DNA from: Bdellovibrionales bacterium
GTDB lineage: Bacteria; Bdellovibrionota; Bdellovibrionia; Bdellovibrionales; JAUICD01
DNA length: 56,862 nucleotides
Assembly: GCA_965197425.1 (NCBI GenBank)
Contig: CBDANC010000006.1
Span: forward strand, 1-56,862
Reading direction: 5' to 3'
Part shown: one piece after another, positions 6,462-55,193 of the stretch
Layout: each line of letters opens with the position of its first letter
How positions within the stretch are numbered: the first letter of the stretch is position 1
Position numbers and translations under genes: made by a program
The notes under the pieces: generated by a model
What the model was told of the DNA's origin: nothing
What the model saw: the letters and a program-made list of their open reading frames with translations, nothing else
The model's database searches: none

Positions 6462-6580
6462 AAGGTCTTCCAATGAGGCCAACAAAAGTTGATTGGCGTA
6501 GCGGCGTGCAAAGCACAAAGAGAAGCAAAGAAACTTTTTTGGCCGAGTGGTTGCCCAGCTATGGAACTCACAGCTCATTC
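6462..6580 (+). repeat. Hairpin cassette (AAGGTCTTC...GTTGCCCAGC family), unique core with GTGCAAAGCAC apex
   Basis: Conserved ends shared with copies at 11516, 21214, 21338, 44606 and 46266. Confidence 0.85.
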
Positions 6581-6649
6581 CATCACAAATACTCACACCA
6601 ACTCTACTATAAATTACACCGTATCATAAATGTAAGGATATAGGTGAGG

Positions 6650-6705
6650 GGCAATAGCTTTAACGAGGGGTTCAAGCGAAGCGTCCCCAAGTTAAAGCTG
6701 TTGCC
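6650..6705. repeat. Long inverted repeat with GCGAAGC apex, between convergent genes
   Basis: GGCAATAGCTTTAAC...GTTAAAGCTGTTGCC outer stem, GGGG/CCCC inner stem. Confidence 0.7.
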
Positions 6706-6780
6706 ACGAACCTTCCTAAAATAATAATAAACGGTGAAGCCGATAGGATTCAAAGCCTCCCGCAGGGAAAAACTCACAGC

Positions 6781-7914
6781 TCATTCTATTACAATATTTG
6801 CATCACTACCACCATTCACTAATCTTATCAGCGTAATTTCTTCCATTTCTATCAATTCTTCTAAAAGCAATGGTAGTGCAAACACAGTTTGTACATAAAA
6901 ATCATGTAGTAGTAGTATTGAACCTCTATCTTTTCTCTTTATTGATCTTATGATAGAGTCCTTCATTTCTCTTGGATTCAAAGTGTTCCAATCCCTTGAA
7001 TCAATATTCCAAAAAAATGTACTAAAGCCAGCATCTGAAACTTTTCTTTGTAGTTCAGGCGTAGTTAATCCATATGGAAATCTAAAGATATTTTTAAAAA
7101 ATTCTGGAGTAGCTATCAAAGCCTCTTTTATTAAATTGTGGCCATTTATTATATTTTCAAAAGCTAAATCTGTACTAACTTCTGATAAATGCTGGTGATC
7201 AAGTGAATGAGACCCTACCATGTTCCCCTTCTCAGCAACTACCTGAACTATCTCTTTATGTTTATCTACTCTATTTCCTACCATGAAAAATGAGCCTTTG
7301 GCTCCATAAGCCTCCAAGATACCAACCACAATTTCAGTGTAAATATGATGAGGGCCATCATCAAAAGTTAGAGCAAGATGATTTTTTGGAAATTCATGAC
7401 CATAAAATATCTTTTGTTTGTTATCTATACTCTTAATTGTTTTTATTTTTTTATCTTCATCTATACTATTTGGATTAATTTTAATATTCCCATTCAAATC
7501 TATATCCAGTAGTTGGCCTTCAAACTCCCTTAAGTAAGTCGCTTGATTTGAAATCAAACTTCTCCTGCAGGGTCCTTCCGATAAAACTTCTCTTATAAAA
7601 AAATCATAAAGCACTAATTGTTCGTTACTTTCTTGAAGAAGAGCTTCGCAGATTAGTGTTTCTTTGTTTTCTAGGTTTACTATCTTCCCAAATTGAATCA
7701 ATTTTTCTTTTGCAATAACATGTTCTTTATAGGATTTAGCAGATTTTAAGTCAGCACTAAAGGATTCAACCAGTCTAAGTGCATGATCACCTTCCAATTT
7801 ATCGTTGGTATTCAAAATAGAAGATATATCATTAAACGCATCGTCACTAATATTCAGTTTGGCAGTAAAGCCAAGTAGTGCAAAAACTCCTAAATAAATT
7901 AAAACTCTAGGCAT
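6781..7914 (-). CDS. Exported polysaccharide/peptidoglycan deacetylase (CE4, NodB homology)
   Basis: TFDDGP, HSLDH, RFPYG, DSRDW and LLHD motifs; N-terminal hydrophobic signal. Confidence 0.92.
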   Translation of the reverse strand: MPRVLIYLGVFALLGFTAKLNISDDAFNDISSILNTNDKLEGDHALRLVESFSADLKSAKSYKEHVIAKEKLIQFGKIVNLENKETLICEALLQESNEQLVLYDFFIREVLSEGPCRRSLISNQATYLREFEGQLLDIDLNGNIKINPNSIDEDKKIKTIKSIDNKQKIFYGHEFPKNHLALTFDDGPHHIYTEIVVGILEAYGAKGSFFMVGNRVDKHKEIVQVVAEKGNMVGSHSLDHQHLSEVSTDLAFENIINGHNLIKEALIATPEFFKNIFRFPYGLTTPELQRKVSDAGFSTFFWNIDSRDWNTLNPREMKDSIIRSIKRKDRGSILLLHDFYVQTVFALPLLLEELIEMEEITLIRLVNGGSDANIVIE

Positions 7915-7956
7915 ATCGCGTTCGATATTACTACTGTTATAATAAATTTACAATTA

Positions 7957-8094
7957 AAGGTGAGGTTAATGAGGCCAATAAGGTGAACTTGTTTGCCTTT
8001 TGGCCGAGTGCCTGTTTCCACCAGGGTGAGGCTAACGAGCCAAAAAATAAGGCAGCTTTTGCTGACCTTGTTTTAGCCGAGTTCGGAAGACCTT
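7957..8094. repeat. Composite hairpin cassette with two GAG(G)C...GCCGAG cores, ending TTCGGAAGACCTT
   Basis: Core and terminal motifs shared with the other family members. Confidence 0.75.
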
Positions 8095-10438: not shown

Positions 10439-10938
10439 ATTCCCTCCTCATTCTTTTTTTCGCCACAGTCTGCGTTAAGACATATTCCATATGCCGTTCT
10501 TACCCACACCAATCTTACTCCATCATCTGACTTAATTTTGGTATTATAATCATAAGTTAATTCTTCTGTTTCATGATTAGCTGGTTTATCTTTTGCTAGT
10601 TTTTGATTTATACTTTGGGTTACCGAAATATTTCTAGCAGGTGTAATATATAAAGCTTCATCACTTTCATCTGTTATAGTATGTAACCTAAATCCAAAAG
10701 GCGTATATTTTGGGTTTTGTGATGGTTCTGTGGTAAGCTCATTTCTATGATATGTAAGATTCGATCTATTAGTAAATGTGTTAAAAGCATACTGTCTTGC
10801 TGAAATGGAATTCACTATACCAGTGTGGATTACTCCGAAAAATCCAAGTCCAAAACTTGTTAGAACTATAAAGACAACCGTTAAAATGACGGCTTCTATT
10901 GTAGCAAGACCCTGTTGATTATATTTCATATCTAACAC
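10435..10938 (-). CDS. TadE-like pseudopilin
   Basis: QQG|LATIE cleavage motif plus TM helix, in tad cluster. Confidence 0.7.
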   Translation of the reverse strand: MLDMKYNQQGLATIEAVILTVVFIVLTSFGLGFFGVIHTGIVNSISARQYAFNTFTNRSNLTYHRNELTTEPSQNPKYTPFGFRLHTITDESDEALYITPARNISVTQSINQKLAKDKPANHETEELTYDYNTKIKSDDGVRLVWVRTAYGICLNADCGEKKNEEGI

Positions 10939-11609
10939 CCATTATCCCAAATACTAGTAGCCTTGAAACTTTCAAGCTCTCCATACAAACCCTGTATTAG
11001 CTCTGCCTTTTTATTTATAGCAGACATACACTCTTCCATAGATGGCTCCCTTCCTAGTAGAGATACAACTGTTGTTTGAAAATCATCTTCACTTCCAGCA
11101 GAGCCTAGTAGAGGTAGTGCTTTGGATAGTACTTTGACTGAAACACTTGTCTTTGTCCCTATTAAATTTTTGTTGTTGCCACTACCAGCGGTGTTTCCGC
11201 TACCAGTGGAGTTTCCATCTTCGAAGTGAGCTGAATGATCTCCATGTGTACTTGATATGGCAAATAAATTTTTGTTTAATAAATTTTTTAAGATGTTTTG
11301 TTCTCTTAGACTTTCAAATTTAGCAGTAGCAGAATTTTTCTGCTCTTCTTCTGAGATATCAGATGCATAGTAACTTCTAGATGAAGCAAAGGTCATGTAT
11401 TGTACAACTTCCATCATAGATAGGGTATAGTTTGTAATCAAAAGTAGCATAGACATGCCTATGACTATTAAGAACGCAAACATAAAATCAAATACTAAAA
11501 AACCCCTGTTATTCAAAGGTCTTCCAAACGAGGCAGAAAAGGGAAGCTTTGCTTTCCTTGTTGCCGAGTGGTTGCCCAGCTCTACACATGTCATTGATTT
11601 CATTTTCAT
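10932..11609 (-). CDS. TadE-like pseudopilin carrying two repeat-derived in-frame insertions
   Basis: NNRG|FLVFD plus TM helix; leader contains cassette 11516-11583; GNSTGSGNTAGS comes from two 18-bp units. Confidence 0.7.
   Translation of the reverse strand: MKMKSMTCVELGNHSATRKAKLPFSASFGRPLNNRGFLVFDFMFAFLIVIGMSMLLLITNYTLSMMEVVQYMTFASSRSYYASDISEEEQKNSATAKFESLREQNILKNLLNKNLFAISSTHGDHSAHFEDGNSTGSGNTAGSGNNKNLIGTKTSVSVKVLSKALPLLGSAGSEDDFQTTVVSLLGREPSMEECMSAINKKAELIQGLYGELESFKATSIWDNGC
11183..11218. repeat. Two 18-bp palindromic units inside CDS
   Basis: TACCAGCGGTGTTTCCGC TACCAGTGGAGTTTCCAT. Confidence 0.75.
11516..11583 (+). repeat. Hairpin cassette (short type I core, no Y module) inside the pseudopilin leader
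   Basis: AAGGTCTTCCAAACGAGGC...GCCGAGTGGTTGCCCAGCTCT. Confidence 0.9.
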
Positions 11610-11875
11610 TCGAAGGTTCCTCTTAGTGATACTCTTCGTTTCATATTAAAGTTTGGGTGAAGTTTTCTAGCTTCGGCTGGACCTTTTTTTTCCCAAACAC
11701 CACTTTCAACCATCCCAGACACCTTGCCCCACGGTTCTTTTATCATCATACCTGGCCAGGATGAGCTTCTTAAACTTTGGGATACAAACACAATTACGCC
11801 GGCAATTATGGTACCTATTAAAACTGTCTCTACTGTTACCTGCCCACTTTGTGCTTTTAGTTTTCTTCTTACCAT
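11606..11875 (-). CDS. Small TadE/Flp-like pseudopilin
   Basis: QSG|QVTVE motif plus TM helix; ATG 11875 overlaps the end of the peptidase gene. Confidence 0.7.
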   Translation of the reverse strand: MVRRKLKAQSGQVTVETVLIGTIIAGVIVFVSQSLRSSSWPGMMIKEPWGKVSGMVESGVWEKKGPAEARKLHPNFNMKRRVSLRGTFE

Positions 11876-12378
11876 GACAGGACACCTCTGTGATCTAGAA
11901 ACGAGTGGGTTATAAAAGCCAGGAAAAAACAAACTGTATAGGGTATGAAGGATAAATTTTGTTTTTCTGGTTTTACATTGTAGATAATCAGGTTCTTCAT
12001 ATTTAAAACAAGTTGTTTCAGCTTACCGTGAAATAGAGCCGACACTAGCCCCAGTATTCCACCCCAAATAATGGATAAAATTAAAACATCAATTATCTTG
12101 CCTGGTATAAAAATAGAAAGTACAAACAAGAGCTTTACATCACCAGCTCCTAACGCGCCTATATAGCAAAGCACAAGGCCCAAAGCGGACATAGTGACTA
12201 AACTAGCTAAAGATGCACCTAGGCCGACTGCGAGTCCAGACACATAAACTTGTGAACAGAATGCTATTATAAAAAAAGTTATAAACAAATAGTTTGGAAA
12301 CTTTTTGTAAAAAAGATCAAACACCACCGCAACCATTAGCACAATTGATGGAAATATTACTGTCACCGCAAGTTCCAT
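11869..12378 (-). CDS. cpaA: A24 prepilin peptidase (TadV/CpaA)
   Basis: FDLFYKKFPN, LGAGDVKLL, IPYT. Confidence 0.9.
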   Translation of the reverse strand: MELAVTVIFPSIVLMVAVVFDLFYKKFPNYLFITFFIIAFCSQVYVSGLAVGLGASLASLVTMSALGLVLCYIGALGAGDVKLLFVLSIFIPGKIIDVLILSIIWGGILGLVSALFHGKLKQLVLNMKNLIIYNVKPEKQNLSFIPYTVCFFLAFITHSFLDHRGVLSW

Positions 12379-12608
12379 TAGTCAAAATCCCCTTTTGTGG
12401 GCTTGCTCCAGCCCAATCCATCGCCTTCACCTGTGTGATTTTTAGCTTTGGTTTGAAATAAGCTGCCTGTATCTAGTTGCCTTTCAATTCTAGTAGCCAA
12501 TACTGGCCCAGAATTTATAAAAGCACTTTTAAAAGGACCATCTCCACCTAGAAATCCCGTTAAAATAAATGTAGCCAACAAAAGTAGTATTACAAGCTCT
12601 GTAGTCAT
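12378..12608 (-). CDS. Small Flp/TadE-like protein (start may lie slightly upstream)
   Basis: xxTELVILLLL pilin-like helix; P.LATRIERQL.TG; between flp and the peptidase. Confidence 0.6.
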   Translation of the reverse strand: MTTELVILLLLATFILTGFLGGDGPFKSAFINSGPVLATRIERQLDTGSLFQTKAKNHTGEGDGLGWSKPTKGDFD

Positions 12609-12637
12609 ACAACATTACCTTATAAAGCCATTACCAT

Positions 12638-12712
12638 TCACCAAATTTACTCATTTGATTTTCTAAATCACCCATCACCAAATTTACCCATTTGATTTTC
12701 TAGATCACCCAT
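12638..12712. repeat. 37-bp tandem duplication of the flp 3' end
   Basis: 12638-12674 vs 12675-12711, 2 mismatches. Confidence 0.9.
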
Positions 12713-12856
12713 TTTACCCTTTAACAGCCCCATGATTTTATCTTTAAAAATCACTAACACTGCTACCACGGCAACCAAGAGTAAAATATATTCAGTAGCT
12801 CCCTGAGCTTCTTCATTTTTTATAAAATCCTTTAAAAAGGCTTTTATCTTTTTCAT
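12668..12856 (-). CDS. flp: Flp family type IVb pilin
   Basis: 62 aa, EEAQGATEYILLL Flp motif (EY), GAGGT SD. Confidence 0.9.
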   Translation of the reverse strand: MKKIKAFLKDFIKNEEAQGATEYILLLVAVVAVLVIFKDKIMGLLKGKMGDLENQMGKFGDG

Positions 12857-12926
12857 CTTTTTACCTCACATAAAAAAATTATACTCACCTGTCATATCTA
12901 TCGGTAAACCCACAAAGATAAGTAAA

Positions 12927-12959
12927 CCAAAACTTGCAAGTGTTCCCAAAACTTGCAAG
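12927..12959. promoter_or_regulatory. Direct repeat CCAAAACTTGCAAG x2 upstream of flp, candidate operator
   Basis: Exact 14-mers at 12927 and 12946, each containing the palindrome CTTGCAAG. Confidence 0.4.
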
Positions 12960-13020
12960 CATTTTAGGTGTACAAACCTTGGTCCAGTTATAGCTTGTTT
13001 GGATGTGGCGGTGTTATTGA

Positions 13021-13301
13021 GAGGGGATCAGCTGTGAGGTTCACCAGGAAACAGCCATTCGGCAAAAAAACCGACCGCAGGGAGGTTATTTCAATTGGAA
13101 AGTATAAAGATTTATCCCGTGAGCCAATTGAACCAAAGTAGGCGAAGCCTCCTTATTTTTTGCCTCGTTCGGAAGACCTTGTGGGGCGGGATCAGTATCT
13201 TGTTCCAGCGCTGGGCAACTCTAATACTGAAAGTACCTTGGCTACATTTGTGCTTTGCACTGCATTTCGCCTAGGCAACTTTCAGTTTTAGCGAAGACCT
13301 T
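13021..13301 (-). repeat. Two tandem hairpin cassettes (type I+Y 13021-13180; type II 13181-13301)
   Basis: Both end in GAAGACCTT; type II core nearly identical to copies at 15779, 15881 and 25724. Confidence 0.9.
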
Positions 13302-13373
13302 GATGTGTGTTATTTTGAGAATTACCAATTTTATAGTCTAGTTTAAGGTAGAAATTACCGTTTTTTATATTCT

Positions 13374-15089
13374 ATGACACTAGATAATTACGAATGGTCA
13401 GACAGATTCCCATTAAGTGAAACTCAACTAGAGGAATGGAAAAAAGATCCAAAAAAACTTCCCTTACTCATTTGGGCGTTAAATACAGGAAACATTGATC
13501 CAGAGCAATTTAAAAATTGGGCGTCCAAATACTATAACCTTCCCAAACTGAAATCTAAATTTTTGGAGCAAATAGAAAAACCACTTGTTAGAGAATACAA
13601 ACACCTATTGGATCTAAATGTTATACCTATGAGAAAAAATGAAGGGGTGTTGTATGCAGCATGTATCGAACCTGTAAAAAATCTCCCTATAAAAGAACAA
13701 GTTCAGTTTTTAGTAGCATGTGCAGATGCCTTACAAGCTACAATACAAAATACCAAAGATAACCTGGATAAACCAGATGAAGAAGAAATTACGGAAAATT
13801 CACTTACCCCTCCGGATGGCATTGCTATTCCAAAAAATATAAAAGTGGGTACTCCACTGGCAACTGATGCTACTAATTTGCCTGACGGTTTAAACATAAA
13901 GCTTACAAAAAATATCAAACCAAATAAAAACTCAAATGAAGCACCAGAAGGCTTGAACATTAAACCTACAAGCAAACTAAAAAAGAAACAATCTGTGAAT
14001 CTCCTACAAGCGGAGTTTCCGCCAGATGGATTAGCTATAAAACCAAAATTTAAAAAGCCAGATCCTAAACTAGATACACCGGACATGCCAGACAACATAG
14101 ACATAAAGAAACTCAAAAATACCAAGTCATTTGTAAAAGATGATGTACCAGATTTTTCAGCAAAACAAAAAAATCCATCTAAAAAAGCAGCACCTAAGAT
14201 AACGCCTAAAGTGTCCTCTGATAATTTAAAAACAGCAACTAGCAAGCCTATCAAATTAAAACCTAAAACCAAAGATACAGAAAAAAATAGTCAGGCCTCA
14301 CACACCACAAAAGGTAACCCCACCCTAACTTCAGCACCAAAGATTGAAGGTCAAAAGATACCACCAGAGCCTGGTCAAGAAACAATAAAACCTATAAAAC
14401 CAAAACAAACCTTGGGTGATGTTCCTAAAAAAGATATTGAATCTAATGTGGTGCCATTAAAACCAAAGCAAGCATCAGAAGCGGAGACTCCGCCGGTAGT
14501 GGATACTCCACCGGTAGTGGAGACTCCACTGGTAAAAGATTTAAATCTTGAAGATAGAAAGGTGGAGGATGCTATAGAACAGAATCTGCCAAAAGTACCT
14601 GAAAACAATGTTCAAAGAATAAAACCAATTTCTAAAAAAAGTGACACAGAAGAAGTTAATCTGGAAAATCTTGATCCTGTGTTTTTGGAGAATATTTTAA
14701 GATCATTAGATAGTATATTTGATAACAAAGTTTTATTCTTTGTAAAAGAAGGTAAGCTTACGCCAGCACATTGGGATAAAAGCTTTGTGCCAAAAAGTAC
14801 CAACCCTTTGAATACATTAGATAAACCTAGCATTTTTAGAATAGCGTTTAAAAGTAGAGATAAATACTTTGGAGAAATATACAAAAACGAGGTAAACGAT
14901 TTGTTCTTTGACAATTGGATGGGCGGACAATATCCGGACAGGGTTACAATTTTAGCACTTCTAAATAGTGATAGGGTTTTTGGTTTATTTCTAGGTGTCC
15001 ACAAAGTGGTTGATACTACACTTGATACATTAGATGTTATATCCAAAGAAATCGGACAGAAACTAGTAAGCCAGCTTAAAGCATCATAA
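13374..15089 (+). CDS. Hypothetical protein: globular N-domain (possibly GspE/PilB-N-like), Lys/Pro-rich linker with PDGLxIK repeats, globular (possibly GAF-like) C-domain
   Basis: 571-aa ORF; repeats PPDGIAI/LPDGLNIK/APEGLNIK/PPDGLAIK; domain calls are tentative. Confidence 0.6.
   Translation: MTLDNYEWSDRFPLSETQLEEWKKDPKKLPLLIWALNTGNIDPEQFKNWASKYYNLPKLKSKFLEQIEKPLVREYKHLLDLNVIPMRKNEGVLYAACIEPVKNLPIKEQVQFLVACADALQATIQNTKDNLDKPDEEEITENSLTPPDGIAIPKNIKVGTPLATDATNLPDGLNIKLTKNIKPNKNSNEAPEGLNIKPTSKLKKKQSVNLLQAEFPPDGLAIKPKFKKPDPKLDTPDMPDNIDIKKLKNTKSFVKDDVPDFSAKQKNPSKKAAPKITPKVSSDNLKTATSKPIKLKPKTKDTEKNSQASHTTKGNPTLTSAPKIEGQKIPPEPGQETIKPIKPKQTLGDVPKKDIESNVVPLKPKQASEAETPPVVDTPPVVETPLVKDLNLEDRKVEDAIEQNLPKVPENNVQRIKPISKKSDTEEVNLENLDPVFLENILRSLDSIFDNKVLFFVKEGKLTPAHWDKSFVPKSTNPLNTLDKPSIFRIAFKSRDKYFGEIYKNEVNDLFFDNWMGGQYPDRVTILALLNSDRVFGLFLGVHKVVDTTLDTLDVISKEIGQKLVSQLKAS
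14481..14534. repeat. Three 18-bp palindromic units in CDS (AETPPV VDTPPV VETPLV); a further single unit at 13845-13862
   Basis: GCGGAGACTCCGCCGGTA GTGGATACTCCACCGGTA GTGGAGACTCCACTGGTA. Confidence 0.9.
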
Positions 15090-15210
15090 ACTTAATCTCT
15101 TTATAAAAAACTTATATACCAAAGCAGTGTTGCACTGCAAAACCAAATTAAAGTGACAATATTTGCTTTTAAATTTAAAAATTAGTAAACCTCTAGAGAG
15201 GAGTCTTAAG

Positions 15211-15759
15211 ATGACAATTGGGTTTTCTGATCTTTCCAACAAAAAATTTACACGAAGTGTTTTAGGGTATGATCCCGTAGAGGTTACCAATTTTTTAAGA
15301 GATATGTCTTTAGAGATTGATAGGCTTTACAAAGAAAGAACCATGCTAAAAGAAATGATAAGAGAAAGGGATGTTTCCTTGTTAAATTACAAAGAGAAAG
15401 ACAAAACCCTAAAAGATACTCTTGAAGTAGCAAAAGAGATGAGCAAAAAATTAAAAAGCGACACTAATAGAGAGGCCAGACTTATTATCAATGATGCTGA
15501 ACAAAAGGCAGACATAATAATGAGAGAGGCCAGAGATTCTCTAAAGGATATTTATAGAGAAATAAACACTCTGAGAAAAAGCAAGATCCAAATAGAAACA
15601 AACTTAAGAGCTCTCTTACACGCACATCTTAGTCTTTTGGACGAACAAATCACAACAGATGTGGCAAACACAGACAACAAAAGCTTTGATAATGCTGCTG
15701 AAAACAGTAGCTACAATGAACAGGCTAACAAAGCATCCGTTTCTCCAATCAGCTCATAA
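15211..15759 (+). CDS. divIVA: DivIVA domain protein
   Basis: KKFTRSVLGYDPVEVTNFL plus coiled coil; AGGAG SD before ATG 15211. Confidence 0.9.
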   Translation: MTIGFSDLSNKKFTRSVLGYDPVEVTNFLRDMSLEIDRLYKERTMLKEMIRERDVSLLNYKEKDKTLKDTLEVAKEMSKKLKSDTNREARLIINDAEQKADIIMREARDSLKDIYREINTLRKSKIQIETNLRALLHAHLSLLDEQITTDVANTDNKSFDNAAENSSYNEQANKASVSPISS

Positions 15760-15778
15760 AACAAAAAAATATCCCAAT

Positions 15779-15995
15779 AGAGCTGGGCAACTCTAATACT
15801 GAAAGTACCTTGGCTACATTTGTGCTTTGCACTGCATTTCGCCTAGGCAACTTTCAGTTTTAGCGAAGACCTTTATGTAACGGAATCAGCATCGTGTCCA
15901 GAGCTGGGCAACTCTAATACTGAAAGTACCTTGGCTACATTTGTGCTTTGGCACTGCATTTCGCCTAGGCAACTTTCAGTTTTAGCGAAGACCTT
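15779..15995 (-). repeat. Two tandem type II hairpin cassettes
   Basis: 15779-15873 and 15881-15995 are near-identical to 13211-13301. Confidence 0.95.
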
Positions 15996-16146
15996 GAGAA
16001 ATAAATTCAAAAGTGTGTTACTAAAAGTCTAGGATTATAAAAACTGTGGACATATGAGAAAACATATGTATATTAGGGCCAATCTTGACAATCTAGAAGC
16101 AATAAGTCTTAGGCATTTTTTTAACATTTAAATTTTAGGTATTTTT

Positions 16147-19100
16147 GTGAAACGCAAATTCTGGCATTTCAAATGTCGAGTACCCCTAATACACCTTTTG
16201 TGCTTTAGCATTGTATTAAATGGGAATGTCGGTTTCTCAAGCTCTACCCCGCACTACCATCAGGAAGAATTACCAAGTGATTTAGATGAAGAAAAAGTTC
16301 AATACCTAGAAGTTGACACTTGGAGCTTACTTCCACAAGAGCTAAAAGCTCATTCACATGCAGGATCAATAAAGCCAGAAGATGTTGTTATATCTTTAAT
16401 AAGCAAAGCTGGAAAATTTGAGCAATATGATATAATTAGACCAAGACCATATATAAATGCACCAACTAACCCCGAAGTAACATTTGATGCTCCTGTATTT
16501 TCAGAAGCTGAGCAAGTTCATATAGAGCTACAGTTTAGAAATAAACCATTTTGGGTATTTCACAAACCCATACTAAGCATAGCTAGATATGGCAACTACA
16601 TTGTCTTTATTGAAGCAGGAGATGTGGCAGAAGACAATACAGCTCTTTCGTTTATCGATCTTAGTTACTTCCAATCCACACTTGGATCTGAAGAAGGATA
16701 TTTACCCATATTTAAGATGGATATCCCAGCATTCAGTCATAATATAAGTATATCTATTCAAAACAAAAGCTTGTTAGTTAACAACTTCCCTATAACAAGA
16801 TATATATTAGATGAGTTTGGTCTGGTTTTAACAACCACATGGAACATTCAAGCAAATCTACTGTCTCATGAAACATATCAAGAACAAGTACCTATAATAG
16901 AAAGTTTACTTGAAGATCTAGAAAATGGAATGCAGTCCACATCATCTCTATTTTTTTCTAGAATAGATGCTCTAGAAGATACTAGTGAATTACAAATAGA
17001 CTCTGTAAAAAATAGACTCAAGAACGCACTGGAGTCAGCACAAAACTACAGAACTAGAGATGAAGCATTAGAAGCATCAAAAAATATAACAAAAGAATTT
17101 GTAATAGAAAGTCCCAAAGCTAAACAGAGAATTGAAAATGCCTTAAAAATATATAGCAGTGAAAGAGGTGTCATCAACAAGTCCCAGTTAATGATGAGAA
17201 GATTAATGTTTCCACGCCCAAAGGCAGGCGGCACAATCAGGGAAGCGTTGGGTTTTGTCGTAGGAAGTTTAACAGGACCATCTGGCGAAAGAGCATGGCA
17301 AATCAAAGAAGGTACTTTTATAATTTTAAATAAACCATCAGCAGTTATTGGAGCATCTTTGGCAGGTGCTTTGACGCTTGGATATATTCAACCAGATGCA
17401 GTTCAAGATTTTTTCTATCAGATTATAGACTGGGGCGGAACCGCACAAGAAATACTTAACAATAAATTTAGAAGTCTATTTACTATTATTAAAGAAGCCC
17501 TCTTTTCTAATGGAACTCTAAAAATTCCAAATATGAGAGTATACTTTAGTGAACAGTGGATAGGTAAATGGATATATGCTAATTTACATATTCTAACTAT
17601 ACTTGCAATGTCATTTGGTGTTCCTCATCTAGCCATTAACTTATTTCACCTTAGAAAGGCTAAAATAAATGCTAGAAATCAAAGCCAAAATTTTTCCCTT
17701 GATGGACATATAAAACAAAGAGAAGACGATTATTATCGTGCACAACCTGATGACTATATAGGTTCAAATCCCACTGAATTTACAAAAGAGGAAAATGAAC
17801 AAGTAAAAGAAATTATAGCCGAAATTAAAAGACCAAAAAGTCGTATAGAAACGTTTCTATCTAATACAAAAAAGCTTGCATCTGAAATTAAGGATAGACT
17901 TCCATCGATTCCATCGATTCCATCAAGTTCGCTAAGCAAATTTCTGTTTAGTTGGAGTGCACTACAAAATACATACGTAGCGTTTACTTATTTTTGGTGG
18001 AAGTATGTATATCAATTACAGGTAACTGCTCTTTTTAAACCCCATGTATTATCAACACTGCTTTACTATCCCAATGCATTTAATATAGGTACAAAAGACG
18101 CGGATCTTGATCACTACAAAACACCACACCCAATCACAAATCTAAATGGAGGCCGCAGACCCTTCTGGAGACAACACCCACTTAAGTTAGCAAGTCTTTT
18201 AAACAAAACCTATAAAAACAAATATGATGCTTATAAACAATGGGAAGATCATATTCTCAATATTGAGAAAATGGTGTTAGAAAAATCCCAAATTAAGGCA
18301 TTAGAACTAACTACACAAAACTTAGAAGAAAACCAACAACTTCATCTTATAAGAGATCTCACCGAAAATTCTCGGCTGTATGAAATGATAGAAAAACTTA
18401 ATGAAGAGCAAACAAAAAAATATCAAAATGACTCTAATTATATTTTTAACAAATCTATACAAAAAATACTAAAACCAGTAATTGATAAAATAAAAAACTC
18501 TTCGTGGCCTAACTGTGACATGTCTTATGACGATTGCATAAGTGAAATAGATGAACACAAACCAGGTACACTAAAAACTGTACTTGACATTAAACCTACC
18601 TTACAAGAAGTAGATGAAATAATAAATGAAGTTATAACTAGCAATGAATTTGATAGATACGATCCTTCGAGCCAAAAAGTTAAGATTAGCTCTAGCACTG
18701 TGTTCGTGAATAATATTCTATACAAATCATTGAACCCGCACAAAAACAAACAAGTCGAAAGATGGATTATGACAAGGGAGCAGCTAGAAGATCCTAACGC
18801 AGTTAGAAGAAATACCCCAAAAACTTTTTATAAGTTTTTGCAAGGGATCCCTGAGTATTTTTTGTATTGGGTAGGAGCTTCAGGAATAATGACCATGGCA
18901 TCTCAAGGGAGAATACCACTTGACGATATACTTGTTCCTCTAACTGATTCTCCGCCCTACTGGTCCGCTTATTTGTTTGGAATGATGTTCTTTGTGGATT
19001 TTATGGAAAAGATGTTTAACGATTTTGGTCTTAAGATGCAAGAAGAATACAGACACAATAAGAAAGGTTTTTTTGATGTATCTGTACCTGCAAAAGAAAC

Positions 19101-19752
19101 TTCTTTTTTAAAATGGTACTGGCAAAAAATATGGGACAAAGATAAGAAGAATACCTGGTGGAAAAATACAAAGCACTTTGTGGGGAAAATGTTAGTTCCT
19201 AATTTTCCAGCATACACAACAATGTATTTAATTACATCAAGGTTGATACTAAAACGGGTTGATCTGGATTCATATGTTATGGGTTATATGATATACCTCT
19301 TATTTCCAACAAGGGGACTTATCATGAAACTTACTCAAGGCTTTGAGGCAGCCATGACTGGATATTGGTATAAATATATACCACAAGGAATGGAAAAACT
19401 TAGAGATCATCCTAATTTACAAATACAGATTGATAAGGAAAAAAATAAAAATAGATTTAGATTTCAATTCTTTTATTTTATTCTTTACACAAACTTTGTA
19501 AGCCAAACACTTGGGACTGTAAAGCTTATTGGCTTTGACAAGTCTAGAGAACTTGCAAGATGGTTACCATTTTTTGGCTCCCCTCCCACAGTATTAGCTG
19601 TAAACTTTTTGGAACAAATAAAGGAAATGACAGGCCTAGATAAAGCAGTAACCTGGTGCCAAAAAGCTCTATCCAATGGATACGATGGGTGGATGCCTTC
19701 TGACGATGGACCAATACCTGAATGGCTTAAAAAACCCTGGCAAAAACCCTAA
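16147..19752 (+). CDS. Large hypothetical membrane protein (1201 aa)
   Basis: Long ORF with signal-like N-terminus and several aromatic-rich hydrophobic segments; no recognised motif. Confidence 0.75.
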   Translation: MKRKFWHFKCRVPLIHLLCFSIVLNGNVGFSSSTPHYHQEELPSDLDEEKVQYLEVDTWSLLPQELKAHSHAGSIKPEDVVISLISKAGKFEQYDIIRPRPYINAPTNPEVTFDAPVFSEAEQVHIELQFRNKPFWVFHKPILSIARYGNYIVFIEAGDVAEDNTALSFIDLSYFQSTLGSEEGYLPIFKMDIPAFSHNISISIQNKSLLVNNFPITRYILDEFGLVLTTTWNIQANLLSHETYQEQVPIIESLLEDLENGMQSTSSLFFSRIDALEDTSELQIDSVKNRLKNALESAQNYRTRDEALEASKNITKEFVIESPKAKQRIENALKIYSSERGVINKSQLMMRRLMFPRPKAGGTIREALGFVVGSLTGPSGERAWQIKEGTFIILNKPSAVIGASLAGALTLGYIQPDAVQDFFYQIIDWGGTAQEILNNKFRSLFTIIKEALFSNGTLKIPNMRVYFSEQWIGKWIYANLHILTILAMSFGVPHLAINLFHLRKAKINARNQSQNFSLDGHIKQREDDYYRAQPDDYIGSNPTEFTKEENEQVKEIIAEIKRPKSRIETFLSNTKKLASEIKDRLPSIPSIPSSSLSKFLFSWSALQNTYVAFTYFWWKYVYQLQVTALFKPHVLSTLLYYPNAFNIGTKDADLDHYKTPHPITNLNGGRRPFWRQHPLKLASLLNKTYKNKYDAYKQWEDHILNIEKMVLEKSQIKALELTTQNLEENQQLHLIRDLTENSRLYEMIEKLNEEQTKKYQNDSNYIFNKSIQKILKPVIDKIKNSSWPNCDMSYDDCISEIDEHKPGTLKTVLDIKPTLQEVDEIINEVITSNEFDRYDPSSQKVKISSSTVFVNNILYKSLNPHKNKQVERWIMTREQLEDPNAVRRNTPKTFYKFLQGIPEYFLYWVGASGIMTMASQGRIPLDDILVPLTDSPPYWSAYLFGMMFFVDFMEKMFNDFGLKMQEEYRHNKKGFFDVSVPAKETSFLKWYWQKIWDKDKKNTWWKNTKHFVGKMLVPNFPAYTTMYLITSRLILKRVDLDSYVMGYMIYLLFPTRGLIMKLTQGFEAAMTGYWYKYIPQGMEKLRDHPNLQIQIDKEKNKNRFRFQFFYFILYTNFVSQTLGTVKLIGFDKSRELARWLPFFGSPPTVLAVNFLEQIKEMTGLDKAVTWCQKALSNGYDGWMPSDDGPIPEWLKKPWQKP

Positions 19753-19896
19753 ACTCAACAACCGTCAATAACCTGGTATTTTTTAATACCTTTGTTCATA
19801 TATTGCATATAATTTTGGCACGACCTTCCACAAACTTTAATCCTAACTGAAAAAAATAATTTAACAATTCTAAGATTTTATCCTCATCTTATTTTT

Positions 19897-19912
19897 TGGC
19901 ACAACTGTTGCT
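19897..19912 (+). promoter_or_regulatory. Sigma-54 (-24/-12) promoter
   Basis: TGGCAC-AACTG-TTGCT matches TGGCAC-N5-TTGC; directly upstream of fliL-like/fliA. Confidence 0.75.
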
Positions 19913-19958
19913 CTATTAAGAACAGGTGGGCACAGCACCACCCAAGGAGCAAGCAATT

Positions 19959-20399
19959 TTGTCAACGTCAAAGACATTTATATTTGGAGTACTATTACCC
20001 TTTAGCCTAGTGGTCTATGTTAATGGCTTTTGTGATGTAGGAAGCTTCCACAAAATTAACTTTCAAGAAATTTATCAATCAGACTTAAGTAGCGAGGGCG
20101 AAGCTCATAAGTTTGTTATAGATTTAGATCCAATTCTTATAAACATTCCAGGTGATAAACAAAATCAAATAGTAGAAGCACTTGTTCAGTTGGAAACTCT
20201 CGAAGTAAAAGAAATTACCTCAAAGCAATCTCAGATAACAGATATTGCCACTTTAATTTTAACAAGCCAAGAGCATCAATTACTTATGGAAAAAAGCTTC
20301 AGGAATGAAGTTGCAAGTGAGATCAGATCAACAATCAATTCAATTCTAACTAAAGATTCAATTCTAAAAATTAATTTGGATTGCAGTTACAACATCTGA
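19959..20399 (+). CDS. FliL-like protein (divergent)
   Basis: N-terminal TM, IDLDPILINI, ITDIATLIL, EIRSTINSIL resemble FliL; AAGGAG SD before TTG 19959. Confidence 0.6.
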   Translation: MSTSKTFIFGVLLPFSLVVYVNGFCDVGSFHKINFQEIYQSDLSSEGEAHKFVIDLDPILINIPGDKQNQIVEALVQLETLEVKEITSKQSQITDIATLILTSQEHQLLMEKSFRNEVASEIRSTINSILTKDSILKINLDCSYNI

Positions 20400-20413
20400 A
20401 AAGGAAGAGACAA

Positions 20414-21209
20414 GTGAAAAAAGAAAACAGTGCACTATTAAAAAAATATAAAGAAAACCCTAACAATCTTACAAGAGAACAAAAAGATAAGTTGATAAAA
20501 GATTACGCTCCTTTAATAAAATATATTGCACGTAAAATTGCACTAAGACTTCCTTCAAGTATAGATTTAGATGATCTTATTTCAAGTGGAGTTATGGGAT
20601 TGATGGATGCTTTAGAAAAATATGATATGAGCAGAGAAAATACTTTTAAGACATATGCAGAATTTAGAATAAGAGGAAGTATTTTGGACGAACTCAGATC
20701 ACAAGACTGGGCACCTAGGAGTATCAGAGATAAAGCAAAGCTAATGGAGCGTGCCCAAACTCAGTTAGAAAATAAATTGGGCAGAAAACCCACAGCATCT
20801 GAAGTTGCTCAAAAACTTGGAATAAGTAAAACAAAATATCACAAACTAGAGAATAATGTACGACCTGTTAGCATGCTATCTATAGATGAACAATCTTCAT
20901 TTAGTAGCTTTGATAAAAAATCAATACTTAGTATTATTCATGGATCTAGCATTGGAAACCCTTCGGTTGATATAGATGTAAAGGATCTTAAAGAAAAAAA
21001 TAGCGAACTGTATAAAACAACTCCCTGAGAAACAGAGAGTGGTCATGACTCTTTATTACTATGAAGATCTAAACTTAAAAGAAATAGGTGATATGTTAAA
21101 GGTTACAGAAAGTAGAATCTCTCAACTAAGAGCACAAGCTCTACTGAAGCTAAAAGAAAGACTTTCTCCTTACATATATCAAAAAAGTGAGATTGCTAAA
21201 GCAAGTTAG
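20414..21209 (+). pseudogene. fliA: FliA/WhiG sigma-28 factor interrupted by one extra A in the A7 tract (20994-21000)
   Basis: DDLISSGVMGLMDA, TYAEFRIRGSILDELR..DWAPRS; the shifted frame continues LPEKQRVVMTLYYYEDLNLKEIG..VTESRISQL to TAG 21209. Confidence 0.9.
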
Positions 21210-21213
21210 TCTA

Positions 21214-21468
21214 AAGGTCTTCCGAATCAAGTTAAAAGATGGATTGGTGAAATGTAAGACGAAGTCCAAATGTAACCAAGACATCTTTTAGCTTGATGGT
21301 TGCCCAGCTCTGGAACACGATGCTGATCCCGTCCCACAAGGTCTTCCGAACGAGGCAAATAAGGGAAGTTCGCTTTCCTTGGTTCAATTGGCTTACGGGA
21401 TAAACCTTTATATTATCCAATTGAAATAACCTCCCTGCGGTCGGTTTTTGCCGAGTGGTTGCCCAGCT
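21214..21468 (+). repeat. Two tandem hairpin cassettes (type III 21214-21337; type I+Y 21338-21468)
   Basis: AAGGTCTTCCGAA starts both; GGTTGCCCAGCT closes both cores. Confidence 0.92.
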
Positions 21469-21491
21469 TTGTAGGTGTAATATGATAACAG

Positions 21492-26013: not shown

Positions 26014-26025
26014 GTGGGAGGAAAC

Positions 26026-44068: not shown

Positions 44069-44620
44069 ATGAGCCAAAACGCAAAAAACAAAAACATAGT
44101 TTTCGGGCTATCAGGATCAATAGCCTGCTTTAAGGCCTGCCAGGCCATATCAGTTCTAGCACAAAAAGGTTTTAAGATACAAACTATAGTAACAAAGAGT
44201 GCCCTAAAATTTATAGGTAAGGCAACCTTAGAAGGCCTTACAGGTAATAGGGTTTTATCTGATATGTATGAAGAGGGCTATCAAATGCAACATATTGATA
44301 TTTTGCAAAATATGAGTGTTTTTGTAATATGTCCCGCCACAGCCAGCATTATTAATAAAATGGCCAGTGGTATTTGTGATAATTTACTTGTTAGTAGTTT
44401 TGTGGCTAATAATTTTAAAAAACCCACCATCATATTTCCAGCTATGAATACTGATATGCTTAACTATCCAGCCACAAAAAGATCTCTAGAAGTCTTAGCT
44501 AAATGGGGTGCTAAAATTGAACACGGAGAGTCAGGTTACTTAGCATGTGGACAATATGGACTAGGTAGAATTAGTGAGCCGGAGGAAATAACCAAAGTAA
44601 TACTAAAGGTCTTCAAATGA
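44069..44620 (+). CDS. coaC: Phosphopantothenoylcysteine decarboxylase (stand-alone)
   Basis: GLSGSIACFKA, PATASIINKMASG, PAMNTDM, GYLACG..GLGR. Confidence 0.92.
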   Translation: MSQNAKNKNIVFGLSGSIACFKACQAISVLAQKGFKIQTIVTKSALKFIGKATLEGLTGNRVLSDMYEEGYQMQHIDILQNMSVFVICPATASIINKMASGICDNLLVSSFVANNFKKPTIIFPAMNTDMLNYPATKRSLEVLAKWGAKIEHGESGYLACGQYGLGRISEPEEITKVILKVFK

Positions 44621-44670
44621 GTCCAATAAAGTGAGCTTGCTTGCTTTTTGGACTCATTGTTGCCCAGCAC
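44606..44670 (+). repeat. Short hairpin cassette that supplies the coaC stop codon
   Basis: AAGGTCTTC-AAATGAGTCCAA...TTGGACTCATT-GTTGCCCAGC. Confidence 0.85.
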
Positions 44671-44700
44671 TTTAACGTATAATATGACTTAAGTGACTAC

Positions 44701-45387
44701 ATGAATATACTTGTAACAGCAGGAGCAACTAGAGAAAAAATTGATGCAATAAGGTTTATCACCAACATCAGTACAGGAAAAACTGGACTATTTATTGCAT
44801 CTTATTTTAGTGAAAATGGCCACAGTGTCACTTTGCTAAAGCCTAAAAGTGTCACAGTGTCAGGTGCTCGATACAAAACAGATTCATTTGTCAGTGTTAA
44901 TGATCTCAAAAACAAACTTCATTTTTATCTCCAAAACTATACCTTTGATGCTGTGATACACTCGGCTGCGGTTGGTGATTTTAATGTAAACTACATAAAT
45001 CAAAACAATAAAAAAATAAAAAACCCTGACAAGAAGCTTAAAACATCTGACACATTAACAATCGAGCTTAAAGCCAATCCAAAACTCTTAAGTGAACTTA
45101 AATCTCTATCTAAAAATCCAAATATTTTAGTTGTAGGATTTAAGTTATCATACAACACCCAAGAAAAACCTAAACCAGATCAAAAGGTCGATATATGGGT
45201 TAGCAACAAGTATGAAGATGTAGATGGCTTTTTGCATAAAGCAGAAATTTATACAAATACAGGTGGAGTATCCACCACGAGTGGAGTTTCCGCTACAAGC
45301 GGAGTTTCCGCTGACAGTACAAAGAAAGTTAATAATAAAAAAGAACTATCTTGTGTTCTATTAGATATGATACAAAAGCTATTATGA
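44701..45387 (+). CDS. coaB: Phosphopantothenate--cysteine ligase (stand-alone) with an 18-aa repeat insertion
   Basis: VTAGATREKIDAIRFITNISTGKTG, HSAAVGDF, VVGFKL. Confidence 0.92.
   Translation: MNILVTAGATREKIDAIRFITNISTGKTGLFIASYFSENGHSVTLLKPKSVTVSGARYKTDSFVSVNDLKNKLHFYLQNYTFDAVIHSAAVGDFNVNYINQNNKKIKNPDKKLKTSDTLTIELKANPKLLSELKSLSKNPNILVVGFKLSYNTQEKPKPDQKVDIWVSNKYEDVDGFLHKAEIYTNTGGVSTTSGVSATSGVSADSTKKVNNKKELSCVLLDMIQKLL
45258..45311. repeat. Three 18-bp units inside coaB (TGGVSTTSGVSATSGVSA)
   Basis: TACAGGTGGAGTATCCAC CACGAGTGGAGTTTCCGC TACAAGCGGAGTTTCCGC. Confidence 0.92.
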
Positions 45388-46265: not shown

Positions 46266-46423
46266 AAGGTCTTCCGAATGAGGTAAATAAGGGAAGCTTC
46301 GCTTTCCTTTTTTCAATTGGCTCACGGGATAAATCTTTATACTTTCCAATTGAAAGAACCTTCCTACAGTCGGTTTTTTATCCGAGTGATTGCCCAGCTC
46401 TGGAACATGATGCCGATCCCGTC
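46266..46423 (+). repeat. Hairpin cassette type I+Y
   Basis: Colinear with 21338-21468 plus the TGGAACA.GATGC.GATCCCGTC tail. Confidence 0.92.
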
Positions 46424-46544
46424 ACTATAAACTATTTTACACAACCTTAGGTTATTATTGCAAAATTCATCCATCCATGCTACAAAAGCATTCGAGGCAA
46501 TCAGCTCTACTCGCTTCAACCTAATAACCAAACACTTATTTTAT

Positions 46545-53000: not shown

Positions 53001-54728
53001 ATAATCAGCATCCTGATCTTCATCAGGCCAACTGGATACATTTAAATTATCTAACTCAAGTCCTAACGTACCATCATCTACGCTAGATAAACTAGCTATC
53101 AATGAAGCACGGTTAGGTTGACTAGAGGTAAGCTTAAAGTTCTCACATAAATCCCACTTAGGTGAACTTGTACTGCCATCCGTACTACCGGACTTTGTAG
53201 GGTTGCTTCTTATACCAAGCTTATGTACACCACCATTACCAAAAGGCCTATAGGAACTTAAACCTGCTATATCATCACAATTAGGGGTGCCCTTAACACA
53301 GTCCTCAAAACTACTCTTATCAAAACCACATAAAAAGACCCCTCTAAAATCTGCCTTATTAACACTATCATTCCAAACCTTACCAATATTCCTAAAGTTT
53401 AATGTAGCTTCTGTAGCATAATCACTAAGAGTAGCATGAGTAGCTCCATCAGGCTTAGTAGGGATAGAATCAGCAGCACCATACTTATAACCAACATTTA
53501 AACCAGGGTTGTTTTGAAGGGGGTGAGTTGTGGAAGCTATAAAATCATTAGAACCATCTTTAATCTCTCTGTCATGGTGAACATATACAGGTCTTCTAGA
53601 TGGAGGAACTGCAAAGCTGTTAGCATAAGCAAATAACTTATTTGACTTACAGGATCTTTCTAACTTATCCACACCAGGTCTTGTTTTAACTTCAACAAAT
53701 AACTTCAAACCTACATCTGACCTCATCTGGGCTGAAGTTAGACTCCTCTCCAGCTTATAACCAATCTTATTCTGTCTCTCTAATTCGTTGGTGCCTAAAA
53801 TACTATCTGTAATGTATCTATCATACTTAGAATGAGGTCTTAAAAAGACTGCTGGATGAACCTTAGTATCAGTACAACCAAGAGCACTACGATTAGATAA
53901 ACTCCAAGGCCTTATACCTATCTTCACATCATATGGCTGAGCAGTATTAGTATAACTAGTACTATAATCAGTAAAACCTGCTAAGAGATGCAAATTTAAG
54001 GCATTTTTGAGACTCTTGGATAAACCATATAAGTACTCAGAGGTAAAAGTATCCCAAGCATAATGATTAGAAGATAAATTAGCATCAGCCATTTCCTTAT
54101 AGTAATCAGGTTCAGGTCCTGGAGTTGCTGGTTTTACATCATCTAGCTTCTTATGTAAGTCTATCAGCTTAGCAGTGTTACCAGCCTCGTAGGTAATCAC
54201 CATATCATTAGCAAGATCAAAGGTCAGGTTATCTACATTAGATGGACATATGCTAGGAATGTTAGAACGATACTCGTTAAATAAATCTTCTACTAAACTA
54301 ACACCACTACCTCTATGAAACTTATCTACTTTCAAAGTAATGTGACTATTACTACCATGAGGCTCTATAACAAGATTAGGACCAGCATTATGAGTAGCCT
54401 CTCCACTAGGGTTTACAGATATAGTGCTTCTTTCTTCTATAGCTGCTTCAAAATCAGTAGGAGGAGTACCAGGGAAATGCTCTGAGTTAAGCAAAACAAT
54501 AGGCTCTAAGCCACCCTGAGAAAATCTCTCCATTACGTTAGTAGCTATAGCTGCACATTCATAGGAATCATCAGTCAACTTAGATGCCGTGTTCATCTGA
54601 CCAGATATAAATGTAACTACAAAACCAGATATGGATACTAAGGCTAAACCAACTACAGTCTCTATTAAAGTAAAACCACCACCAGTGGAGTATCCACCAC
54701 CTTGCAGATTGAATGATTGCTTAAACAA
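50040..54728 (-). CDS. Giant prepilin-motif protein with Cys-rich C-terminal half (start uncertain; frame open up to 54851)
   Basis: G|FTLIETVVGLALV type IV methylation motif; very many C, CC and CxxC motifs over ~850 aa; poly-Pro linker. Confidence 0.85.
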   Translation of the reverse strand: MFKQSFNLQGGGYSTGGGFTLIETVVGLALVSISGFVVTFISGQMNTASKLTDDSYECAAIATNVMERFSQGGLEPIVLLNSEHFPGTPPTDFEAAIEERSTISVNPSGEATHNAGPNLVIEPHGSNSHITLKVDKFHRGSGVSLVEDLFNEYRSNIPSICPSNVDNLTFDLANDMVITYEAGNTAKLIDLHKKLDDVKPATPGPEPDYYKEMADANLSSNHYAWDTFTSEYLYGLSKSLKNALNLHLLAGFTDYSTSYTNTAQPYDVKIGIRPWSLSNRSALGCTDTKVHPAVFLRPHSKYDRYITDSILGTNELERQNKIGYKLERSLTSAQMRSDVGLKLFVEVKTRPGVDKLERSCKSNKLFAYANSFAVPPSRRPVYVHHDREIKDGSNDFIASTTHPLQNNPGLNVGYKYGAADSIPTKPDGATHATLSDYATEATLNFRNIGKVWNDSVNKADFRGVFLCGFDKSSFEDCVKGTPNCDDIAGLSSYRPFGNGGVHKLGIRSNPTKSGSTDGSTSSPKWDLCENFKLTSSQPNRASLIASLSSVDDGTLGLELDNLNVSSWPDEDQDADYRVRFKLVDEYGNDYSATENGQIQSDDYTEEHRVFAYNCAQFGNIHASGSYATPSKNCGVTNPDPNIAKYNRRIANPFYNARSDCEHTFNLLLGNGITNGTSSCVKLSNIRIYNNYFDDSIEERTGPANSPVRPVNGTGVTCDYWVEQCVNDGTACVQCGQGYMRDYPETTRQSCNGGSASLGGVTCYKAGVNCCSGVNNYNPFLCPTGGPCTNCSHPLDSLNRTVDRLCPSSVSCGFNEDPTCGATCNTNGLGCGICTGATPCNTPNCFSCSFGTPGVCQYKCSAPTPYCDGASNCVECLNNGHCGGGDICCSYSCRAPCNASSNNCEECHGPCSSPVSRCSSGKICDGSGGCVDPPPPPPPPPVCTPNPCPTGQTCCPDNQCRTNCCSVACDDDGDCNAGETCQDAGQCSASCVTCVGGVGCNSDADCPGGVCQGAGNCGSSCCPVTCNSNSDCGAGKSCSDAGTCSSSCVDIPCPTGQVRCGAICKTPTCSGAGDCAVPTPTCQNPGTCTSICVTCSGAQPDCAATCQAVICGSGGWECDTSSGCPTGENCCTGVNPPACKAPCVADTNACEQCADNCATPTSKCVLPQTCDGAGNCGNPPPTCGSQITDSECQECTDPNSTTETPRNVTASCGACGICSAGSCNETVPCTCPSATKPTCDSDNCETAQCVGTTWQCNQTGPPTCTANPDNCVTCPKPCGTPVTGQPTCTSNTATCTKCDEPCGTPVSTCTGSDVCCSGTCKPSCGCSAGEVSCTTGDIGGSCGCGVTCPASGCCTPVTCSGGTTCDTTTGNCVGCTSDTDCSGTCNKCNSSNTCQVDSNCCTSDNQCSGTTPCCSSNTCGSATCTVDTATCTTCPSSDGQCGPPVTCDPNTETCVNQRCVPVCNPSCGACENCVSGSCVSIPDCCASDSDCTAKCSQCIGNRCEPVDGCCDNDSDCPECFSCRPPQYSWDQGGTCDSSSPGTGCRTCGVCDGSGTCNENLPCP

Positions 54729-54820
54729 ACTTTTATTCTGTTTGAAATATGCATTATTTAGCCTAGCTAGGCTTATCTTTAGAAACTGGATTAGCCGTGA
54801 GGTCCACCAGAATGGAATTT

Positions 54821-54836
54821 GGGGGGGGGGGGGGGG
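54821..54836. repeat. G16 homopolymer tract
   Basis: 16 consecutive G in an AT-rich background. Confidence 0.9.
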
Positions 54837-55042
54837 TGAGTTAAATATTCGTTATTACTAAGGTTTTTAGCATTAACTTCTTCGCCAACAACATCAACAG
54901 CACCAGCACTGTTGGTGTTACAACTGTCGATACCCCTGTGAGAGTTTTTGTTTCGAAAGCCCCATCCCATAAACAAGATCATAACAAACGAGATACACAT
55001 TGCTATAACTTTTTTTAGAAAATCCCAATAAAATACACCACA

Positions 55043-55193
55043 AAGGTCTTCCTAACGAGGCAAAAAACAAGTGGACTTGTTATCTTTTTTGCTAAGCGAA
55101 TTACGTTCAACAACACTGATTGAGTTCAGCAAATAATGGACTTGTTCCATTTTTGCTGGACGAATTACGTTCCGGCACAGTCACTTAAGACCT
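55043..55193 (+). repeat. Divergent hairpin cassette with two cores, each followed by CGAATTACGTTC
   Basis: AAGGTCTTCCTAACGAGGC start; GGACTTGTT apex twice; ends AAGACCT. Confidence 0.75.

Follow-up and report, generated by a model that had tools for sequence, protein, structure and literature searches.

A recently mobile family of modular hairpin repeats in two sister species of Bdellovibrionales

The 56,862-nt stretch analysed here (the window; positions 1 to 56,862 of the forward strand of contig CBDANC010000006.1, assembly GCA_965197425.1, from a Bdellovibrionales bacterium) carries short hairpin-forming repeats between positions 6462 and 55265, and the locus raises the question of what these repeats are and how they have spread. 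An earlier note on the window had described them as a non-autonomous mosaic resembling repetitive extragenic palindromes (REPs) and bacterial interspersed mosaic elements (BIMEs), with no transposase nearby; this description holds, and none of the transposase families searched for was found on the main contigs of the genome. The repeats belong to a hairpin family that is real, recently mobile, lineage-specific, and undescribed, no account of it having been found in the open-access literature (subscription papers, ISfinder, and supplements lay outside this search). The genome holding the window (G000, with the window as contig C6) comprises 1.6 Mb and is 99.4% complete and 2.5% contaminated; its gene content is in keeping with a Bdellovibrio relative. 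Three of its 15 contigs (C1, C4, and C11), in which ribosomal and other genes are duplicated, identity to the sister species (G001) is lower, and another genus's repeats occur, were excluded from cluster and unit counts as apparently foreign; exact genome totals for the unit ends cover all 15 contigs.

Each unit consists of a left end (L, AAGGTCTTC), a stem with an A-run and a T-run, a core, a right box (R, GTTGCCCAGC), and a tail of about 28–32 nt, often followed by the next L. Both ends lie where they had been reported and are far commoner than in shuffled sequence: the window has 14 copies of L, where shuffles give a mean of 0.48 and at most 3, and 10 copies of R, where the shuffle mean is 0.04. 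Units are 65–135 nt long and are arranged head to tail, with L and R ends that differ from each other; 94 of the 158 parsed L-R units have exact L and R, while the others are variants or bear alternative ends (AAGGTGAGG/C and GGCTGTTTCC). Cores comprise short hairpins (type I), long type II/III cores, and others, and most combinations with the three main tail types occur. Near-identical cores bear different tails, and six core-less L-R fusions were found; tails belong to the units and recombine freely with the cores. A 66-nt module (M66), of which G000 has about 55 copies (56 pattern matches, one of them spurious), is in most cases nested in a short core. The four type II copies in the window differ at 0–2 positions over 92–93 nt, in agreement with the recent copying that had been proposed for them. 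Head-to-tail pairs with unlike cores are present at 13021–13301 and 21214–21468, whereas a third proposed pair, at 25724–26013, consists of two separate units about 80 nt apart.

Other parts of the earlier description need revision. The ends had been viewed as terminal signals carrying variable cargo, but the long cores are homologous covarying structures common to both species, and the tail belongs to the unit, with cores and tails reassorting. The 23-nt sequence said to extend the right end often is one of the several tails, and in full it matches only one place in the window (≤1 mismatch). Neither the core at 6462 nor that at 44606 is unique: the first is a variant long core of the II/III type, and the second has a sibling at C13:75838. 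An autonomous partner had been envisaged, yet no L and R pair was found around a mobility gene; the units enclose no open reading frames (ORFs), and no mobility gene was recognised by eye among 23 genes flanked on both sides by repeats.

A genome-wide search of ends and cores, as the earlier note had suggested, found the family far beyond the window contig, with about 175 clusters in G000 that total 26 kb (approximately 1.7% of the genome) and with 194 exact matches to L and 129 to R. A homologous family is present in G001, a 1.6-Mb genome (7% incomplete) of a sister species in the same genus with 68% median protein identity to G000; this family, revealed by a k-mer survey, forms 95 clusters and has an identical L, an R that is related, cores built to the same plan, and a tail that corresponds to one of the G000 tail types, and 19 9-mers are common to both families in the same orientation (versus 8.3 ± 3.0). 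A BLAST search of one window cluster against 40 relatives had given no match, a false negative given the homologous family in G001. Across the order (201 genomes searched), the 200 genomes other than G001 have its tail motif at background level only (0–3 matches). Exact-pattern scans gave five matches in GTDB contigs, three in JGI metagenomes, and 0, 5, and 0 in IMG/VR, all of them isolated and without the rest of a unit, and BLAST against plasmids and phages gave no match to the units. A second genus (g2; G002 and G004) has an analogous mosaic family of branched hairpins; homology between this family and that of G000 was not demonstrated, shared 9-mers being within the control range.

Relatives provided evidence for mobility, including the empty sites that had been proposed as a check. 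Of the occupied G000 sites, 96 have a syntenic gap; G001 is empty at 86 of these and filled at 10, and since only 20 of 793 syntenic gaps are filled overall, some sites are old or favoured. Logan contigs from related strains run across at least two window sites without a unit: 25902 is joined to 26016 in X3 and X5, runs from two studies, while 21195 is joined to 21486 in run X5. At the 25918 site, CCTCCC is present once in the empty allele and on both flanks when filled, and the left remnant plus the right tail make up one whole 28-nt tail, a pattern predicted by integration of a circle through a single crossover. TA is repeated at the 21214 site, where five extra bases precede L and G001 is also empty, and TCA is repeated at the 11516 site, which is likewise empty in G001. 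A general target duplication of fixed length was rejected, the repeats measuring 6, 2, and 3 nt at these three empty/filled pairs and the overall excess being weak; flanking repeats of ≥5 nt were found at 34 of 105 clusters (versus 20 ± 4), weakly above chance.

The two boundaries of the units differ. The left boundary is sharp, with identity between near-identical copies ending 0–2 nt left of AAGG in all 15 clusters that have such a partner, while right ends are ragged, and junction microhomologies range from 2 to 10 nt. The left flank of 135 first units is TA in 64 and TC in 25; an ATG on the opposite strand lies one base away from 12 of these units, and a stop codon lies within 3 nt of 13. 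Units at gene borders alter stop codons and ribosome-binding sites and add sequence in frame. Orientation relative to genes and replication differs between G000 and G001.

Folding favours one strand. Under RNA parameters, the better fold is that of the L-to-R strand for 128 of the 151 distinct units of G000 and for 70 of the 72 of G001; under DNA parameters the numbers are 115 and 57, respectively. Sites of 1×1 mismatch are more often G·T than A·C (31 versus 3 in G001 and 24 versus 12 in G000), and purine-purine mismatches exceed pyrimidine-pyrimidine ones. Consensus pairs changed on both sides number 14 of 20 in 47 long G000 units and 16 of 19 in 70 G001 units, and 95–96% of cells are paired, compared to 81–82% when partners are shuffled without regard to relatedness; a cross-species MAFFT alignment misaligned the units and was not used in these counts. 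A GNA/GNA 3×3 internal loop was found in 37 of 151 G000 units, 48 of 72 G001 units, and no reverse strand (the search required flanking pairs). Most apical loops have the form C(GNA)G or C(ANA)G, mostly C(GAA/AAA/GTA/GGA/AGA/GCA)G in G001, and some units have GNRA tetraloops. According to excerpts of one paper, mini-hairpins of this kind are far stabler in DNA than in RNA and are found in single-strand origins (PMC13037366; see also PMC3201870).

Few enzymes in either species are candidates for moving the units. No reverse transcriptase was found in G000, G001, or G002, no TnpB in G000 or G001, and no tyrosine recombinase (PF00589), including XerC/D, in G000 or G001; for IS110, PF01548 had no match in G000 and PF02371 none in either species. 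Searches for DDE transposases (PF01609, the IS4/5 type; PF00665, rve; and PF13358, the IS630 type) gave nothing in G001 and one PF01609 match in G000, on C11, and a short IS1595-like fragment was recognised by eye at C13:132116. Y2 transposases (PF04986, IS91/ISCR) were absent from all five genomes in a search without a positive control. The sole GIY-YIG match, a 612-aa frame, is likely UvrC. When 50 shared proteins, chosen from 235 listed out of 1060 orthologue pairs, were scanned with NCBIfam, no transposase was identified; the scan showed a small HNH-like protein and a YraN-like protein; species-specific protein lists were judged by eye, with the G001 list partly covered. The only recombinase in either species is a serine resolvase of about 235 aa (G000 C12:4669-5388; G001 1095237-1095929; L149:1465-2157), which is syntenic, 77% identical between species, and adjacent to a dCTP deaminase gene, and which has relatives with 38–55% identity in viral contigs. 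Neither species has XerC/D, and the enzyme is a candidate substitute for dimer resolution.

Our tentative interpretation, to which we give slightly less than an even chance, is that the units form a genus-wide, BIME-like non-autonomous family that spreads as a folded single strand, probably of DNA, through an enzyme that is most likely a strand-transferase of the HUH type, such as a REP-associated tyrosine transposase (RAYT), either lost or supplied from outside the chromosome. Such an enzyme is our best guess because the mechanism resembles the diversification and amplification of BIMEs, for which excerpts of one study describe the same mosaic, tandem, and variable-linker behaviour, arising through cleavage and strand transfer of single-stranded DNA (ssDNA) (PMC3333891); REPs without their enzyme have been suspected in other genomes as well (PMC6006769, in excerpt). 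The conservation of L, R, tail length, and loop, together with the sharp left boundary, suggests that a specific protein recognises the units. On this view, release of a strand or circle of unit length would take place at the left boundary, in most cases following TA or TC, and joining to a new site would use 2–6 nt of microhomology to the tail end. Units inserted repeatedly into existing copies, along with exchange at L and R, may then generate the mosaics, and copies would persist mainly at gene borders, where they are presumably least harmful.

Several observations weigh against this interpretation. Y1/RAYT proteins (PF01797) are absent from G000 and G001 even though the spread looks recent, a motif scan for HUH proteins gave no convincing candidate, and there is no invariant GTAG or other guide tetramer. 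The lagging-strand-template bias of IS608 is also absent, with 46 leading versus 38 lagging units in G001 (p 0.45) and 41 versus 77 in G000, the direction opposite to the IS608 kind. The folding bias suits RNA as well as DNA; in short (type I) cores the stable triloop is on the opposite strand, single units are only modestly stabler than shuffles (z −0.1 to −3.1 over 12 strands), and the partner shuffles overstate covariation because they ignore relatedness. At the junctions, the empty allele at 25918 could represent a deletion between the repeats, which G001 does not polarise, and the 21214 and 11516 sites fall 5–17 nt short of a whole tail. Mean flanking-repeat length is 3.27 versus 2.95 (p 0.02) in 41 G000 clusters, with no excess in eight G001 clusters. 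A different reading, which we regard as doubtful, is that these are transposase-free mobile DNAs, that is, single-stranded hairpin units of about 100 nt with mini-hairpin and GNA/GNA motifs, moved as tiny circles by a chromosomal enzyme in genomes without insertion sequence (IS) or integrase; the enzyme would be either the single small serine recombinase or some strand-transfer activity of the host.

It is also possible, though unlikely, that no dedicated mover exists and that host replication, repair, and recombination (template switching at hairpins, gene conversion, and microhomology joining) copy and shuffle the units. The lack of every searched transposase family on the main contigs of both species would fit, as would the variable length of junction microhomologies, the six core-less fusions, and the entry of M66 into a site in four-helix-bundle genes that resembles its own end; the sharp left boundary would not, nor would the preservation of L, R, tail length, and the GNA/GNA loop across species at this level of protein divergence. 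The serine recombinase could instead have been co-opted for excision and integration of units at a 2-nt core. With a threshold of E ≤ 1e-25, it occurs in 4 of 121 genomes of the order, exactly those with modular hairpin families, while G003, of which a 200-kb sample shows no abundant repeat, lacks the gene, and TA, the commonest left flank, would suit such a core. The four genomes are close kin, however, so that this co-occurrence amounts to one or two events; the gene has a conserved upstream palindrome of its own and surroundings unlike the units, G002 copies mostly lack units, three intact ones having none nearby, and the enzyme may serve housekeeping given the lack of XerC/D. Serine recombinases act on duplex sites, which leaves the one-strand folding and the ragged right ends unexplained, and we consider this explanation improbable.

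Copying through RNA, as for short interspersed nuclear elements or retrozymes with one fixed and one truncated end, or membership in a structured RNA family, would account for one-strand folding with G·U-type pairs and purine-rich loops, for one end being fixed and the other ragged, and for the GNRA tetraloops. Against it stand the lack of reverse transcriptase in G000, G001, and G002, the inconsistent orientation to flanking genes, the lack of a promoter excess, and triloops that favour DNA. The Rfam check proposed in the earlier note gave no match at gathering score in the window, and within 12900–26100 no match at E ≤ 5 covered the units; we judge the RNA explanation quite unlikely. The units may, finally, be by-products or passengers of a four-helix-bundle (PF05635) cassette system. 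G000 has 18 such genes, of which eight have a unit end within 150 nt, compared to 264 of 1132 other genes, a mild enrichment; M66 is found in frame at one position in four of the 18, and genus g2 has both the genes and a hairpin family. With 95 clusters in G001 and no PF05635 match in that genome, however, this explanation is largely refuted and highly improbable, unless such genes lie in the 7% that G001 lacks, and these genes were rejected as the mover; the PF05635 protein is not known to have nuclease activity.

The family falls outside REP/RAYT systems, MITEs (miniature transposable elements with inverted repeats), IS200/605, IS110, and integron cassettes, and it matches nothing in Rfam. 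REPs and BIMEs with TnpA-REP (RAYT), including E. coli BIME-2 and atypical BIMEs, come close, being likewise non-coding intergenic hairpins in over 100 copies that form tandem mosaics of exchangeable parts with variable linkers and strain-variable copy number (excerpts of PMC3333891 and PMC8266576), and the high-copy extragenic imperfect palindromes in mosaics that characterise them are found here. Imperfect bulged stems are a further likeness, and single-strand recognition would be another. In contrast to those systems, G000 and G001 have no RAYT and their hairpins are head-to-tail units of 65–135 nt instead of short REP/iREP pairs; GTAG at the hairpin foot, a defining feature of REPs according to an excerpt of PMC8266576, is absent from L and R in G000 and occurs within the tail of about half of the copies in G001. 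The Streptococcus pneumoniae BOX element is also a modular, structured, non-autonomous intergenic repeat (67–637 nt), but its movement is attributed to an IS transposase (PMC3184786, in excerpt), whereas the main contigs here contain no IS and cores, tails, and ends all reassort. The DNA mini-hairpins of ssDNA origins and N4 promoters share C(GNA)G triloops, including the CCGAAGG of the ssiA signal, with a likeness limited to the loop motif (PMC13037366, in excerpt).

Non-autonomous derivatives of IS200/IS605 resemble the units in that their two ends are distinct, inverted repeats and a fixed duplication are lacking, and the structure is on one strand; they differ from G000 and G001, where there is no Y1 transposase or TnpB, no lagging-strand-template bias, and a ragged right end, and where the target shows a dinucleotide bias only (TA 64 and TC 25 of 135; top tetramer 15 of 156) instead of a tetra- or pentanucleotide. 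The MITE-like character proposed earlier was not borne out: neither R nor the tail end is the reverse complement of L, no fixed target duplication was found, and the main contigs of G000 and G001 hold no cognate DDE transposase. Neither an IS110/IS1111 DEDD recombinase nor the attributes of integron attC cassettes (a PF00589 tyrosine integrase and ORFs in the units) were found. Rickettsia palindromic elements are palindromic repeats that enter coding sequence in frame in a small genome; in-frame entry (M66 in four-helix-bundle genes and units at gene starts) and small genome size are shared, but in-gene copies are a small minority of this family, which is a tandem mosaic. G000 and G001 offer a clean test case for how REP/BIME-like repeats spread without RAYT, with strain differences at single sites, two diverged species for covariation, and a very short list of candidate enzymes.

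Within the window, a plus-strand unit at 6462–6588 has L, a long core of the II/III family, R (6550–6559), and a tail, and two partial units lie face to face at 7957–8094, with alternative ends on the plus strand and L (8086–8094) on the minus strand. A short-hairpin unit with a truncated tail (11516–11590, plus strand), located at the start of the minus-strand gene 10932–11609, has TCA on both sides. Two groups on the minus strand contain type II units: a tandem at 13021–13301 comprises a type II unit, a tail, and a short-hairpin unit with M66 (13069–13134) and an alternative right end, and 15779–15995 holds two type II units with a tail between them. The plus-strand tandem at 21214–21485, which sits in the stop codon of the upstream gene, comprises a type III unit, a tail, and a short-hairpin unit with M66 (21381–21446) and a truncated tail. 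On the minus strand, a type II unit with a tail and a degenerate L stub (25706–25714) occupies 25680–25834, and the short-hairpin unit bounded by CCTCCC, with a full tail, occupies 25918–26015. The remaining three are on the plus strand: a short-hairpin unit with a tail (44606–44699) that contains the stop codon of ORF 44069–44620; a short-hairpin unit with M66 (46310–46375) and a tail (46266–46426); and a composite of L, a short hairpin, more hairpin modules, and a degenerate tail (55043–55265). A terminator role for the units was rejected, as only two of 18 terminator-like sites in 11000–26200 (versus 10.5 ± 4.0) touch units, and so was a promoter role, a consensus scan of the same region giving no promoter excess. 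Units at C13:253091, C14:146958, and window 10932–11609 are found immediately before gene starts or span them; an open frame runs through these units, which may add N-terminal residues or supply a ribosome-binding site.

A further M66 copy (2521–2586, plus strand) lies in frame (22 codons) in a four-helix-bundle gene (2366–2860, minus strand; likely start at the ATG near 2724). The 18 loci of such genes (window 2200–2900 and 17 others) lie between 7/8-mer tandem arrays, and most genes are preceded by a hairpin over the ribosome-binding site, which also occurs in genus g2 and is not found in G001. A second repeat family in the window consists of palindromic 18-nt units of the GTGGAGTATCCAC type, often in tandem and within reading frames (11161–11216, 14472–14534, 39197–39288, 45254–45327, 54685–54700, 56201–56250, and 56664–56714); a loose pattern identified 54 loci in G000 (44 within ORFs) and five matches in G001. 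In G002 and G004 (L031:14780-18400 and L029:60-15250), the hairpin family of genus g2 is a mosaic whose units each have three hairpins; GNRA and C(AGA)G loops occur in them, and 27 of 31 units fold better on one strand. The bin also includes a second ribosomal-protein operon, genus-g2 repeats, and a DDE transposase on C1, C4, and C11, and contig C10 is phage-like in appearance. A run of at least 15 G is found at window 54797–54836, near the start of a giant pilin-like gene region. In G001, two Cas9-type loci with Cas1/Cas2 (recognised by eye at 471771–476118 and 1277042–1283747) are unmatched on the main contigs of G000, and many Rpn-like and lipoprotein paralogues are present.

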